Sequence record: PQ511150.1
Source of the DNA: Escherichia phage NHEP29
DNA: 64,000 nt
Reading direction: 5' to 3' (one strand)
The position numbers and the translations under genes were made by a program. Position 1 is the first letter of the stretch, and every line of letters starts with the position of its first letter. The notes under the pieces were generated by a model. The model saw nothing but the letters and a program-made list of their open reading frames with translations. It had not been told where the DNA came from and did no database searches. Shown piece after piece: positions 10,855 to 27,435 of the stretch.

Positions 10855-10882
10855 AAAAAGCCCCAACCTTTCGGAAGGGGCT
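10855..10882 (-). terminator. Rho-independent terminator (repeat family AGCCCCTTCC-GAAA-GGTTGGGGCT + U-run)
   Basis: Hairpin with GAAA loop followed by TTTTT on minus strand directly after stop of 10887-11444. Confidence 0.65.
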
Positions 10883-10886
10883 TTGA

Positions 10887-11444
10887 TTAGTTTTTGTAAT
10901 ATCGTAAAGGGTTGATATGGAATGAAAGCATTGCGCGTGGAATAGGACGACTCAAAAGACTCTTAAGTTTCCAACCACAGTAAACACGCAGATAAAATGT
11001 AATACCACCAACCTTAAGATAAGGTATAGCAGCGAATAATCCCCATGCAGACTCGTTCCAAACTAAAAGATATCCATGATGTGCCGGATCAGGAGATCCA
11101 GATTTAGTTTCGGCGTTGCCTTTATAGTGCCATTCCGATGAAGCTTCGCGACCTAAAACATGATACGAAAAATTATACGCTTTGTTGCGCCACAGCCAAG
11201 CTACGCGTTGAGCATATTTACCTATAACAGGAATTTTACGTATTTTAGACCAACGTTCAACATGGCCGCGGTCACCATCGATAGGATTATCGTAAGTCAT
11301 CATCCAGTCAAAGCCATAAGGTAGTTTACCGGTTTTTTCACTATGGAATGGAACTACAAATGGTGCTAGAATAATTGCTAAAATCGCTGCGATCCAATCT
11401 ATAGGAACAAGAACAACCCAACTTATGTATTTTAAAAATTTCAT
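10887..11444 (-). CDS. Hypothetical membrane protein (position of T4 rI.-1)
   Basis: 185 aa, N-terminal TM segment; late promoter plus SD upstream. Confidence 0.6.
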   Translation of the reverse strand: MKFLKYISWVVLVPIDWIAAILAIILAPFVVPFHSEKTGKLPYGFDWMMTYDNPIDGDRGHVERWSKIRKIPVIGKYAQRVAWLWRNKAYNFSYHVLGREASSEWHYKGNAETKSGSPDPAHHGYLLVWNESAWGLFAAIPYLKVGGITFYLRVYCGWKLKSLLSRPIPRAMLSFHINPLRYYKN

Positions 11445-11468
11445 ATATCCTCTCTTAGTTTACAAGGA

Positions 11469-11476
11469 TATTTATA
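11469..11476 (-). promoter_or_regulatory. T4-type late promoter TATAAATA (minus strand)
   Basis: Exact TATAAATA about 25 nt upstream of ATG 11444, directly after the terminator hairpin. Confidence 0.55.
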
Positions 11477-11477
11477 C

Positions 11478-11505
11478 AAAAAGCCCCAACCTTTCGGAAG
11501 GGGCT
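11478..11505 (-). terminator. Rho-independent terminator, second copy of the repeat family
   Basis: Identical hairpin plus T-run after stop of rI. Confidence 0.65.
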
Positions 11506-11511
11506 AGTAAA

Positions 11512-11814
11512 TTAGATAGATGTAGGCTCTAATTTTATTTTCATGAACTCGGCAAATTGTCTGGCAGTTTTTATGCCTTGTTCCTGACATTCAAATGCAT
11601 CATCACAGGGGCTATTTTTGTAATGCTTTGCCATATACTTATAAAATTTTTCAGAATTCTCAACATTTTGAATTTCGAACAAAGTATATACGTTTTTAAT
11701 CCCTGATTCCATAAAGTTATCAAAGTACGGGTCAACATATGCAGTGCCGACAATAGGAGTCGTTGCTGCAAAAAACCCCAGCATCGCCACAATGGCTATC
11801 GCTCTTAAGGCCAT
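11512..11814 (-). CDS. rI: RI lysis-inhibition regulator
   Basis: 100 aa, N-terminal signal anchor, VDP.FD.FMESGI..VY.LFE...KLE matches T4 RI. Confidence 0.8.
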   Translation of the reverse strand: MALRAIAIVAMLGFFAATTPIVGTAYVDPYFDNFMESGIKNVYTLFEIQNVENSEKFYKYMAKHYKNSPCDDAFECQEQGIKTARQFAEFMKIKLEPTSI

Positions 11815-11826
11815 ATAGGCCTCCTG

Positions 11827-12039
11827 TTAATTTTGGCCAGTATTTATTTTTCGCCTTTGGACGGCCTTAACATCTGTGAGGTATTTTTCCAGCTTGCGCT
11901 TGCGTGTATAATCAGCTTTAGAACCAGTTTTACGGATATCCTCGTTTAAATGAGAAATAGAATGTCCTAATTCTCTTCGGATTTCATCCAATTGGGTTAC
12001 AGTAAGATTACGAAGTTGTCTTTCGTTTAATTGCTGCAT
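11827..12039 (-). CDS. Hypothetical protein
   Basis: 70 aa basic ORF; late promoter at 12064-12071 upstream. Confidence 0.5.
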
Positions 12040-12063
12040 ATATACCTCTTGGTTAGATATTAG

Positions 12064-12071
12064 TATTTATA
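12064..12071 (-). promoter_or_regulatory. T4-type late promoter TATAAATA (minus strand)
   Basis: Exact TATAAATA overlapping tk stop, upstream of ORF 11827-12039. Confidence 0.45.
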
Positions 12072-12648
12072 ACAACCCTGTCAAATCATTCCAATGCTTC
12101 CGGCATAATGACACATATCTATCGGTATCACCAATTTCAATTTGACTGCCATCTGTAATTGGAAGTCCGTCTTCCGTGACTCTAGCTACCATTGTGGCCT
12201 TTTTACCACAATGACAGACACCTTTAAGTTCAACAAGCTTATCGGCAATAGCCATTAATGCTTGAGAACCTTCAAATAGATTACCTTTAAAATCTGTTCG
12301 TAGTCCATATGCCATTACTGGCACATTGTATACGTCAACAATACGACTAAGTTGATACACCTTTTCAGTAGTTAAGAACTGAGCTTCGTCAACAAATACA
12401 CAATGAATATCCTTTTGTGCTGCAGCCCATTTATAGAATTCAAAGATATCCATGTCTTTTGTAATTATATTGGCGTCCTGACGAATACCAATACGAGAGA
12501 CTATTTCACCTTTTGAATCGCGAGTATCAATAGCCGGTTTAAGAACTAATACACCCATGCCACGTTCTTTATAGTTATGTGCGGCAGTAAGTAATGAAGC
12601 AGACTTACCGGCGTTCATAGCGGCATATGTAAAAATTAAACTAGCCAT
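12067..12648 (-). CDS. tk: Thymidine kinase
   Basis: 193 aa, P-loop AAMNAGKS, C-terminal zinc-finger cysteines; same length as T4 Tk. Confidence 0.95.
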   Translation of the reverse strand: MASLIFTYAAMNAGKSASLLTAAHNYKERGMGVLVLKPAIDTRDSKGEIVSRIGIRQDANIITKDMDIFEFYKWAAAQKDIHCVFVDEAQFLTTEKVYQLSRIVDVYNVPVMAYGLRTDFKGNLFEGSQALMAIADKLVELKGVCHCGKKATMVARVTEDGLPITDGSQIEIGDTDRYVSLCRKHWNDLTGLL

Positions 12649-12657
12649 AAGAGTCCC

Positions 12658-25764: not shown

Positions 25765-25805
25765 TCCAATGAGAGCATTATACTCTGCTCTCAAGAGTTT
25801 GTAAA
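25765..25805 (-). promoter_or_regulatory. T4-type early promoter (TTTACA, 17 nt, TATAAT) with inverted repeat GAGAGC..GCTCTC around -10
   Basis: Consensus hexamers and SD upstream of ATG 25735. Confidence 0.6.
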
Positions 25806-26033
25806 TTATTTTTTAATCAAATTGACATAAAACTCTGCGTCTTCGGGGTGCATGCCTTCGCAGTATTCTTCAACCATGAACTTCTTAACGGCTTCATAAG
25901 GACCACTCAGATTAAGCTCAGTTGTCCAGAACTTGGAATCTTGGACTGAATCGATACGAACTTCAGGGTGACGGTTGCGAATAACTTCTTCTGTGTATTC
26001 ATAATCAACGACATCAATACTAACTTTAGCCAT
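25806..26033 (-). CDS. Hypothetical protein
   Basis: 75 aa ORF with GAGAGGA SD. Confidence 0.5.
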   Translation of the reverse strand: MAKVSIDVVDYEYTEEVIRNRHPEVRIDSVQDSKFWTTELNLSGPYEAVKKFMVEEYCEGMHPEDAEFYVNLIKK

Positions 26034-26053
26034 TTTATTTTCCTCTCATTTGA

Positions 26054-26094
26054 TTTGATAGGTCTATAGTAACACCGTCCTTGGTGTTTGTACA
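26054..26094 (-). promoter_or_regulatory. PeSL-like early promoter
   Basis: TGTACA, 17 nt, TACTAT, AGACCTATCAAA. Confidence 0.55.
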
Positions 26095-26598
26095 TCATTT
26101 ATTTTTAATTTTGCAAATTTTTCCAGCTTCAATGCACGCAGCATAGATGATGCTCTGGGCAATTTTATTGCTAGTGGACCTTGCAATCACACTAAGAACA
26201 ATTTCTTTTTCTTCACCACCACACCCCCAGCTATTTTGCCCATGTGTACCTTTAACTACGGCCGAAACTTCAACAGAACGTCCACCGTCAGAAGTCTTAA
26301 CATCCACAACCCAATCACCGTCTTTCTCATTAACCTGTGGTTTATCCCAAGAAATACTAATATATGATTCACCGTCAATAGAAGTCGCCGGGTTTTTCTC
26401 TACAGTAAGACCTTCGCTTTCTAACCATTCAATAGTATTTGAGCATAAATCTGTAGAACATCTCATCGGAAAGCGGCATGATTTTTCACCTTTAGATGCA
26501 GCATCATACATCTTTTCCAAAATACGCTTTTGTACATTTTTAAAAACAACGTCACGCGATTCTTCAGATTTTTTATTCAGTTCAGTATAAAGACTCAT
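26095..26598 (-). CDS. Hypothetical protein
   Basis: 167 aa ORF. Confidence 0.55.
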   Translation of the reverse strand: MSLYTELNKKSEESRDVVFKNVQKRILEKMYDAASKGEKSCRFPMRCSTDLCSNTIEWLESEGLTVEKNPATSIDGESYISISWDKPQVNEKDGDWVVDVKTSDGGRSVEVSAVVKGTHGQNSWGCGGEEKEIVLSVIARSTSNKIAQSIIYAACIEAGKICKIKNK

Positions 26599-26615
26599 AA
26601 TGTTTTCCTCATTTG

Positions 26616-26657
26616 TTTTGATAGGTCTATAGTATCATACCTCAAGGAGAAGTAAAC
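26616..26657 (-). promoter_or_regulatory. PeSL-like early promoter
   Basis: GTTTAC, 17 nt, TACTAT, AGACCTATCAAAA. Confidence 0.55.
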
Positions 26658-26690
26658 AACTTTGTGAAAAATTTATCTGCCCTAGATGCC

Positions 26691-26717
26691 CGAAAGCCCC
26701 AACCATAGGAAGGGGCT
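26691..26717 (-). terminator. Terminator-like hairpin, variant of the repeat family
   Basis: GCCCCTTCC-TATGG-TTGGGGC then TTTCG, just after stop of 26736-27362. Confidence 0.45.
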
Positions 26718-26735
26718 TAAGTGATTGTAACTTAA

Positions 26736-27362
26736 TTATTTACGGGTTTTTGCATACTGAGCAGCGTCAGCAGCCAAACGACCTGCCTGACGAAGTTTTT
26801 CTTTAATCGCATCGTGAAGTGGTTGAGTATACTTCAAACCTTCGATAGTCAAATAAAGACGATAAAGGTCCGGGGTATCAAGGTTGTTGATATGTTGGCC
26901 ATTGCGAAGAATATTGAATTCACGAACGAGTGAAGATGTATCAGATTCAATATCGCGAACAAGCGAAGATAGTTGTTTATATTTTTTTTCCAGGCTAGAA
27001 GTATCAAACTTAAGAGCAGGAGCTTTAGGAGTTGCTTTTACTTCAGGCTTAGGCTCAGGTTTTGCTATTGCTTTAGGGGTCGCAGGTTTAGGAACGGTAG
27101 GAGCAGGTTTTACTTTAGGCGAACCAGATTTAGCAGAAACACCACCACTAACAATATCTTTGAATGCTTTAGAAGCTCTGTAATATTCTTTTTGGCTCGA
27201 AGTGTCGATACCGTACATGGCTTGAACGTTTTTGAAAAACTCTGTACTAGTTTTTGTACCAGAAATAGCATCGTAAGCAGCTCGCCATTTCTCTTTTGTC
27301 ATACGTACGCCGGCTTCGGTGATTACTTCCGTTTCGGCTAAAAATTCATTAAAAGTATACAT
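26736..27362 (-). CDS. Internal-protein-like protein (IPIII-like) with capsid-targeting sequence
   Basis: 208 aa beginning MYTFNEFLAETEVITEA; Pro/Lys-rich central repeats; late promoter upstream. Confidence 0.65.
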   Translation of the reverse strand: MYTFNEFLAETEVITEAGVRMTKEKWRAAYDAISGTKTSTEFFKNVQAMYGIDTSSQKEYYRASKAFKDIVSGGVSAKSGSPKVKPAPTVPKPATPKAIAKPEPKPEVKATPKAPALKFDTSSLEKKYKQLSSLVRDIESDTSSLVREFNILRNGQHINNLDTPDLYRLYLTIEGLKYTQPLHDAIKEKLRQAGRLAADAAQYAKTRK

Positions 27363-27397
27363 CGATGGTCCTTAGAAAGTAGGTTTATTGTTTACTA

Positions 27398-27405
27398 TAT
27401 TTATA
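27398..27405 (-). promoter_or_regulatory. T4-type late promoter TATAAATA (minus strand)
   Basis: Exact TATAAATA about 35 nt upstream of ATG 27362, directly after the terminator hairpin. Confidence 0.55.
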
Positions 27406-27406
27406 C

Positions 27407-27435
27407 AAAAAAGCCCCAACCTTTCGGAAGGGGCT
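27407..27435 (-). terminator. Rho-independent terminator, fourth copy of the repeat family
   Basis: Identical hairpin AGCCCCTTCCGAAAGGTTGGGGCT plus T-run. Confidence 0.65.

Follow-up and report, generated by a model that had tools for sequence, protein, structure and literature searches.

What does a short hairpin do that recurs at gene boundaries of a T-even phage and is joined there, each time, to the promoter of the next gene? The question arises from Escherichia phage NHEP29 (record PQ511150.1), of which a stretch of 64,000 nucleotides, hereafter the window, was analysed. A first-pass annotation of the window had described a hairpin with a U-run that occurs four times on the minus strand and is fused in two copies to the box TATAAATA, and had taken this unit for a portable insulator that ends early transcription and restarts late transcription. 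As far as the sequences of the window and its relatives tell, the hairpin brackets two optional, evidently portable late genes and marks the exact joints at which related phages would have gained, lost or moved them. We consider it likely that it is a terminator copied from the end of the tRNA/stable-RNA operon, which would both make late cassettes and supply the homology for their shuffling.

The repeated hairpin and its promoters

The 24-nt sequence AGCCCCTTCCGAAAGGTTGGGGCT has three exact matches in the window, on the minus strand only (10859-10882, 11482-11505 and 27412-27435). None is expected; it was not found in any of 100 dinucleotide-preserving shuffles. A fourth copy on the same strand (26695-26717, core 26696-26716) shares both 9-nt arms, with TAT in place of GAAA as its loop, so that of the four occurrences described before three are exact and one is a variant. 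The exact copies run into T-tracts on the minus strand (T6 at 10854-10859, T5 at 11478-11482, T6 at 27407-27412), and the starts given for them in the first-pass annotation (10855, 11478 and 27407) fall in these tracts. The U-run claimed for the hairpin is therefore present after three copies; the variant has only TTT, followed by CGGG. Its flank, GGCATCTA, is homologous to the flanks of the hairpin copies at the rI locus and after rnaC of T4.

The copies lie at two loci. Genes between 1 and 33.6 kb of the window are on the minus strand, and the window as a whole belongs to a T-even phage of the genus Mosigvirus (RB69-like), with 95-98% identity to many database phages. At locus A the order in the direction of transcription is tk, rI.1, rI, hairpin-T5-G-TATAAATA, the gene of a DUF7338 protein, hairpin-T6, an early promoter and a mobD.2a-like gene. 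At locus B it is tRNA-Met, tRNA-Arg, an rnaD/rnaC homolog, hairpin-T6-G-TATAAATA, a gene that resembles those of internal proteins (IP-like gene), the variant hairpin, an early promoter and a gene for 167 amino acids (aa). Both the DUF7338 gene and the IP-like gene are thus flanked by two hairpin copies; two of the four copies adjoin late and two adjoin early promoters. Distances to genes are given to the Shine-Dalgarno sequence and start codon (SD+ATG).

Locus A
12067-12648, minus strand: tk, upstream in locus A
12064-12071, minus strand: predicted late-promoter box for rI.1-rI, from the TATAAATA scan
11512-11814, minus strand: rI antiholin gene, upstream neighbour of locus A (Pfam Antiholin, E=6e-24; annotations in relatives)
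11482-11505, minus strand: hairpin copy 1, 6 nt past the rI stop (11512-11514), with T5 at 11478-11482 (exact match; fold)
11469-11476, minus strand: predicted late-promoter box, 32 nt before SD+ATG of the DUF7338 gene (exact TATAAATA)
10887-11444, minus strand: DUF7338 protein gene, 185 aa, cassette gene 1, with a hydrophobic N-terminal segment (Pfam PF24027, E=5e-62; phrog_2143; hydropathy)
10859-10882, minus strand: hairpin copy 2, 4 nt past the DUF7338 stop, with T6 at 10854-10859 (exact match; fold)
10815-10843, minus strand: T4-type early promoter, GTTTAC-17 nt-TATAGT, predicted to drive the mobD.2a-like gene (early motif at +16 from hairpin copy 2; repeat family D3)

Locus B
28101-28255, minus strand: tRNA-Met and tRNA-Arg (tRNA search)
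27436-27730, minus strand: non-coding homolog (~300 nt) of the T4 stable RNAs rnaD/rnaC (species 2 and 1) with 3' trailer (comparison with annotated T4 rnaC/rnaD)
27412-27435, minus strand: hairpin copy 3, with T6 at 27407-27412 (exact match; putative ortholog of the T4 rnaC hairpin; annotated as 'putative transcriptional terminator' in G53)
27398-27405, minus strand: predicted late-promoter box, 43 nt before SD+ATG of the IP-like gene (exact TATAAATA)
26736-27362, minus strand: internal-protein-like gene, 208 aa, cassette gene 2 (phrog_2280; leader comparison with T4 ipI/II/III and with genes of JS98 and RB69; distribution)
26695-26717, minus strand: hairpin copy 4, the variant, with the tail TTTCGGG (same arms; repeat family D8; inverted in G53)
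26629-26657, minus strand: T4-type early promoter, GTTTAC-17 nt-TACTAT, predicted to drive the 167-aa gene at 26095-26598 (repeat families D2-D6; alignment with the T4 e.8 promoter)

The hairpin has the features of an intrinsic terminator. Its stem carries two U.U mismatches at the centre; nevertheless the fold energy from RNAfold is -13.9 kcal/mol for the core, and with flanks it is -16 to -17.9 kcal/mol (z about -3). A simple consensus terminator scan detects none of the four copies, since their internal U.U mismatches violate its rule for stems. In an RNAfold scan anchored on T-runs, no combination of hairpin and T-run on the gene strand within the 33-kb early region is stronger than those of the three exact copies. 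Across all contexts in which the hairpin was found, the outermost stem pair covaries (GC 9, CG 3, UA 3, AU 2, unpaired 0). A GC-rich stem followed by a U-tract on the transcribed strand is present in copies 1-3, whereas copy 4 has the stem with only UUU behind it. The hairpin stands 4-6 nt past the stops of rI and of the DUF7338 gene and past the rnaC-like trailer, and all copies are on the gene strand. Stability, co-orientation with the genes, the T5-T6 tract and the position just past stop codons support the prediction that it is an intrinsic terminator. In Rfam only the two tRNAs were found, and nothing for the hairpin or for the rnaC/rnaD-like RNAs.

The variant hairpin differs between close relatives. 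Its central 11 nt are exactly inverted between the window (26696-26716, TTCCTATGGTT on the gene strand) and G53 (L002, 2397-2417, AACCATAGGAA), while the flanks are identical. Such a hairpin 'flip' is as expected of template switching or cruciform processing at a quasi-palindrome, and may have arisen in this way. In IMG/VR the hairpin with the 3-nt loop had no match in either orientation.

The fusion to the late box stood up in full. An exact TATAAATA is present at 11469-11476 and 27398-27405 on the minus strand, each time with a single G between the box and the T-tract, and the near-identity claimed for the extended unit is indeed high: over 37/38 nt of hairpin, T-run, G and TATAAATA the two units differ by one T in the tract. 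The distances of 32 nt (DUF7338 gene) and 43 nt (IP-like gene) to SD+ATG compare with 32-38 nt for most other boxes of the window. TATAAATA occurs 17 times in the window where 7.6 are expected, and all 17 boxes are co-oriented with the local genes. At both joints, then, there is a gene-proximal, co-oriented box of an over-represented motif, which needs no -35 element; this supports the view that the two boxes are placed like the other putative late promoters of the window. For two of the three exact hairpins to have a TATAAATA no more than 10 nt away by chance, the probability is about 1e-5, an estimate built on 7 minus-strand sites in 33.6 kb.

Since the other two copies abut early promoters of the T4 type (GTTTAC-17 nt-TATAGT after copy 2, GTTTAC-17 nt-TACTAT after copy 4), the hairpin is not tied to late promoters. 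It is a general boundary element that serves early and late promoters and is not intrinsically late.

At least 11 minus-strand T4-type early promoters of the window form a repeat family (D1-D6; for example 10349-10400, 22954-23005 and 29713-29764). Several of them have an inverted repeat across the -10 region, such as GATAGGACTA...TAGTCCTATC, and resemble in this the subclasses of PeSL, the stem-loop terminator with early promoter that is compared below, and the AT-rich stem-loops that precede ipI/II/III in T4.

The plus strand has a repeated terminator hairpin as well, GGGAGACTTCGGTCTCCC with a UUCG loop, which stands after gene 8 and gene 23 (window 42824-42858 and 62175-62194). Behind the gene 8 copy come TTTCGTG and TATAAATA (42851-42858), the box for gene 9. 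Fusion of a terminator to a late promoter thus extends to the core structural region, where another hairpin is used.

The two genes behind the late boxes are as had been described. The DUF7338 protein, the membrane protein of the first-pass annotation, has a hydrophobic N-terminus. Its gene is found in 553 phage records, across genera of Straboviridae and in Felixounavirus-like phages (~60% identity). In some records it is labelled 'holin', and in this phage it adjoins the antiholin gene rI. The IP-like product begins with MYTFNEFLAE, to be compared with MKTYQEFIAE of T4 ipII/ipIII and MKTYNEFLNE of the ortholog in phage JS98, and has both a leader of the capsid-targeting type and an L/I-x-E cleavage motif. 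It is called internal-protein-like here and is a candidate internal head protein.

Two further observations concern locus B. The rnaD/rnaC-like stretch (27436-27730) includes a tRNA-like T-arm, GGTTCGAATCC. The T-tract before TATAAATA varies from T6 to T8 in otherwise near-identical Mosigviruses (GADS24 T8, FL18 T7; L163-L168 compared with window 27406-27412), and this variation alters both the length of the terminator tail and the spacing between hairpin and promoter.

Empty, filled and relocated sites in related phages

Comparison with relatives reveals what is exchanged at the joints. RB69 and mobillu do not have the DUF7338 gene; in both, rI is followed by one hairpin and then by the same early promoter that follows copy 2 in the window. 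The rI junction of these phages equals the left flank of the window plus one repeat plus the right flank. The filled junction, rI-hairpin-TATAAATA, is present in 22 database records, and DUF7338 of at least 95% identity is likewise present in 22 records. In KMB38 the flank before both hairpin copies is now identical (TAATCAAAG), a homogenisation that may be taken as a sign of exchange between the copies.

The source of the hairpin is suggested by T4. After rnaC, in the same trailer as in the window, T4 has AGCCCCGACCGAAAGGTTGGGGCT+TTTTTGG with a fully paired stem, and the hairpin of the window is apparently the ortholog of this terminator. In PMC2330249, with reference to Broida and Abelson, transcription of the T4 tRNA cluster is reported to end past the gene of the species I RNA. 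A composite of the window that lacks cassette B can be aligned with T4 over the rnaC trailer, the hairpin and the GG(C/T)ATCTA flank up to the e.8 early promoter, and for this reason T4 appears to represent locus B in its empty state. At the rI locus T4 has a different hairpin, GTCTCCTTCGGGAGAC.

The same two genes are found in another arrangement in the Dhakavirus JS98, where they stand in tandem behind the tRNAs: rnaD, hairpin-T6-G-TATAAATA, DUF7338, hairpin-T5-G-TATAAATA and the IP-like gene. Both JS98 hairpins share one compensatory change from C-G to G-C. In the Gapriverviruses DK-13 and a VR20-like contig, hairpin and late box precede DUF7338 at the tRNA locus, and a further contig (L019) has an empty site at the Gaprivervirus tRNA locus, with the junction in the microhomology GGGCTTTTTTATA. 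The gene behind the rnaC hairpin is not constant: at least four different ones occur there among RB69, Dhakaviruses, Gapriverviruses and Mosigviruses, several of them behind a TATAAATA or AATAAATA box. In other Mosigviruses that keep this IP-like gene, its stop is directly followed by another hairpin and another next gene.

The word 'portable' in the first-pass annotation is borne out by these findings. The unit of about 40 bp does occur at other loci of relatives (JS98, DK-13 and the VR20-like contig); JS98 has hairpin, T-run, G and TATAAATA before the same two genes, and the locus of the DUF7338 cassette differs between genera. One traceable rnaC hairpin is thus seen as empty site, filled site, tandem array and relocated cassette, in four genera.

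A model of the joints and its alternatives

From the repeat, its fold and positions, the boxes, the empty and filled sites and the unit in other genera we infer termination and its efficiency, late-specific initiation and the recombination pathway as follows. A terminator of the rnaC type would have been copied to several gene boundaries in this lineage. Incoming transcripts would stop at the U-tract: early and middle ones and, at locus A, also late rI transcripts. RNA polymerase of the gp55-dependent late type would then start anew ~6-8 nt past TATAAATA, in the late phase only. The second hairpin past the gene and the early promoter behind it would close the unit and restore the regulation of the neighbours, so that the DUF7338 gene and the IP-like gene would each be a self-contained, late-only cassette inside the early-gene region. 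Expression restricted to the late phase would be sensible for an internal protein that is packaged into the prohead and for a membrane protein labelled as 'holin'. Repeats of ~30-40 bp would be enough homology for recombination of the T4 type. Exchange between the two flanking copies would excise a cassette, perhaps in the form of a small circle; recombination with a copy at another site would insert it and leave the gene between two hairpins, as is found at both loci.

This modifies the insulator proposed at the outset. That the unit is composite and portable holds, but the hairpin also serves early promoters, and copy 1 would end late transcripts as well, namely those started at the box at 12064-12071 for rI.1-rI, and not only early ones.

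Several points weigh against the model. The two U.U mismatches contrast with the fully paired stem of T4, and the efficiency of termination could be modest. The variant without U-tract has been retained, so the hairpin may also have a role that does not involve termination. In the Dhakavirus ABTNLsp5 another hairpin stands before DUF7338, and TATAAATA is absent; therefore the gene is not always coupled to the unit. Finally, DUF7338 of Mosigvirus has only ~76% identity to the copies of Dhakavirus and Gaprivervirus, from which it follows that the relocation is old or the donor unsampled, and more than one order of events may be envisaged; the hairpin at rI, for instance, may predate the cassette. 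Strict concerted evolution of the copies within a genome was also considered and rejected: the two compensatory variants of JS98 are identical, but ABTNLsp5 has one copy of each type.

It is tempting to go one step further, although we regard this step as rather doubtful. The late cassettes could form an integron-like system without a recombinase, in which arrays behind the tRNA operon (as in JS98) release mini-circles that re-enter at any copy of the hairpin, here behind rI, with the flip-capable stem as preferred crossover point. If this were true, late accessory genes for injected internal proteins and membrane proteins would move between hyperplastic loci and between genera while the regulation of their neighbours stays undisturbed.

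The opposite assumption is that these elements have no share in gene movement: terminators and TATAAATA boxes evolved or persisted in place, and the identity of the hairpins reflects selection for the shape of a terminator. In favour of this, the exact 20-nt core, CCCCTTCCGAAAGGTTGGGG, serves as a terminator core in ~12 unrelated groups of metagenomic phage contigs in IMG/VR (L008-L045), always in the orientation with the GAAA loop and ahead of a T-run, while the outer stem bases differ and yet pair with each other; the generic hairpin shape CCCCNNCCGAAAGGNNGGGG is common; and with another hairpin a terminator adjoins a late promoter between genes 8 and 9. The recurrence of CCCCTTCCGAAAGGTTGGGG is best explained by a crowding of terminator sequence space, as the sequences suggest. 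A special conserved RNA motif, consisting of the 20-nt core with its tandem U.U mismatches, was examined as well and rejected, since the generic hairpin is common and its inner positions are mostly paired; in a control scan with the four inner positions left free, UU/UU was found in 4/121 and AA/AA in 11/121 among the matches listed. Among T-even phages, however, homology reaches past the core and takes in the closing A-T pair as well as the flank TTTTTGG(C/T)ATCTA. A filled site has exactly one repeat and the cassette more than an empty one, different genera carry these same genes behind the same unit at different loci, and the KMB38 flanks are homogenised between copies. Static, convergent signals are thus an improbable explanation.

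We judge it just as improbable that the hairpin is in the first place an element for the stability or processing of RNA 3' ends, which would shield the rI mRNA and the tRNA/stable-RNA precursor from 3' exonucleases or guide processing, with termination being secondary. Such a role would suit copy 3, which lies in the trailer of a processed stable-RNA precursor, and the variant copy, which keeps the stem without a U-tract. It would also suit the strict RNA-strand orientation, the GAAA loop and the fact that mismatches are U.U and not A.A in all contexts. The hallmark of intrinsic termination, a T-tract directly after the stem, is nevertheless present in three of the four copies and in every unrelated context, and each copy is directly followed by a new promoter, which is needed only where transcription stops.

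That a dedicated nuclease or recombinase, specific for structure or sequence, targets the GC-rich quasi-palindrome (for example as a cruciform) and drives cassette movement is very unlikely: the inverted central 11 nt of the variant hairpin between identical flanks in the window and G53, the speculation of Arbiol et al. that GGGG...CCCC stems are protein targets (PMC2839356) and Mosig's T4 deletions that involved GGGC/GCCC motifs (as cited in PMC2839356) would fit it, but no candidate enzyme is linked to the copies, whose neighbour genes differ between the loci, the flip is also possible by template switching, and the crossover points vary (within the hairpin, in T-run/TATA microhomology, upstream of the stem), as fits homology-driven exchange.

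Comparison with known systems

The individual parts and the general principle were already known, and the advance is incremental. Five known systems invite comparison with the hairpin and its promoters.

The cassettes share with the morons of lambdoid phages, as summarised by Nolan et al. 2006 (PMC1524935), that one accessory gene, equipped with a promoter and a terminator of its own, lies between two phage genes. They differ from the morons of that summary in having no GC anomaly, in using the phage's own class of late promoter and in being joined at a repeated homologous sequence and not by illegitimate recombination. We therefore rejected the term: promoter and terminator are there, but the GC content is 39-40% against a background of 37.5%. 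In the same study the novel ORFs of RB69 were not found to be moron-like, and late promoters were found only before orthologs of T4 late genes.

An RNA hairpin with an adjacent late promoter also restricts I-TevI, segB and other T4 genes within early/middle transcription units to late expression (Edgell et al. 2010, PMC2988022). There the hairpin sequesters the ribosome-binding site on long transcripts and the late promoter lies inside it, which amounts to translational control. Here the hairpin is wholly upstream of the promoter and a U-tract is present, and this points to transcriptional termination instead.

The terminator of the T4 tRNA operon is orthologous in position and sequence (AGCCCCGACCGAAAGGTTGGGGCT+TTTTTGG after the trailer of rnaC, the species 1 RNA). 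In T4 it is a single, fully paired copy without adjacent late promoter or cassette, ~130 nt from the e.8 early promoter.

Locus B is apparently a polymorphic internal-protein locus of the sort described by Repoila et al. 1994 (as cited in PMC2839356 and PMC4122927), with variable IP genes, a conserved N-terminal leader and conserved untranslated blocks that are thought to mediate shuffling. As described in these citing papers, those blocks are based on early promoters with AT-rich stem-loops, as are the ones of T4 ipI/II/III, whereas a GC-rich stem and a late promoter are found here. A second difference from the loci so described is that a membrane-protein gene that is not an IP gene shares the joint and has moved out of the IP locus. 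Functions in host range and anti-defence are typical of internal proteins and of late membrane proteins, and the seams described here may help to predict sites of swapping. Units of ~40 bp that stop transcription and then start it late could also serve as natural parts in the engineering of T-even phages.

The closest likeness is to PeSL, a stem-loop terminator with an early promoter that was described in hyperplastic regions and at indel boundaries and for which terminator activity was measured and mini-circles were demonstrated (Arbiol et al. 2010, PMC2839356), and to PmSL, its version with a middle promoter (Comeau et al. 2014, PMC4122927). As in these elements, a stem-loop terminator with a stem of the GGGG/CCCC type lies just upstream of promoter, SD and ATG, is repeated and marks indel boundaries; PeSL and PmSL were proposed to act via recombination of flanking repeats and mini-circles. 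Copies 2 and 4 have the early promoter that defines PeSL, and both can be classed with it from their layout. Copies 1 and 3 do not have it; they carry TATAAATA, a box of the late type. Repetition and indel boundaries are evident in the rI locus, filled or empty, and in the different genes past the rnaC hairpin among genera. The differences are that copies 1 and 3 carry the late box of the gp55 type, and that one hairpin, traceable to the rnaC terminator, serves early and late joints. Late promoters are mentioned neither by Arbiol et al. 2010 (PMC2839356) nor by Comeau et al. 2014 (PMC4122927). The PeSL idea would thus extend from early and middle to late-expressed accessory genes, with joints that insulate the genes and serve as seams for reshuffling in T4-like phages, and the best reading of the hairpin-TATAAATA joint is that of a putative late-promoter variant of PeSL/PmSL, its closest known kind.

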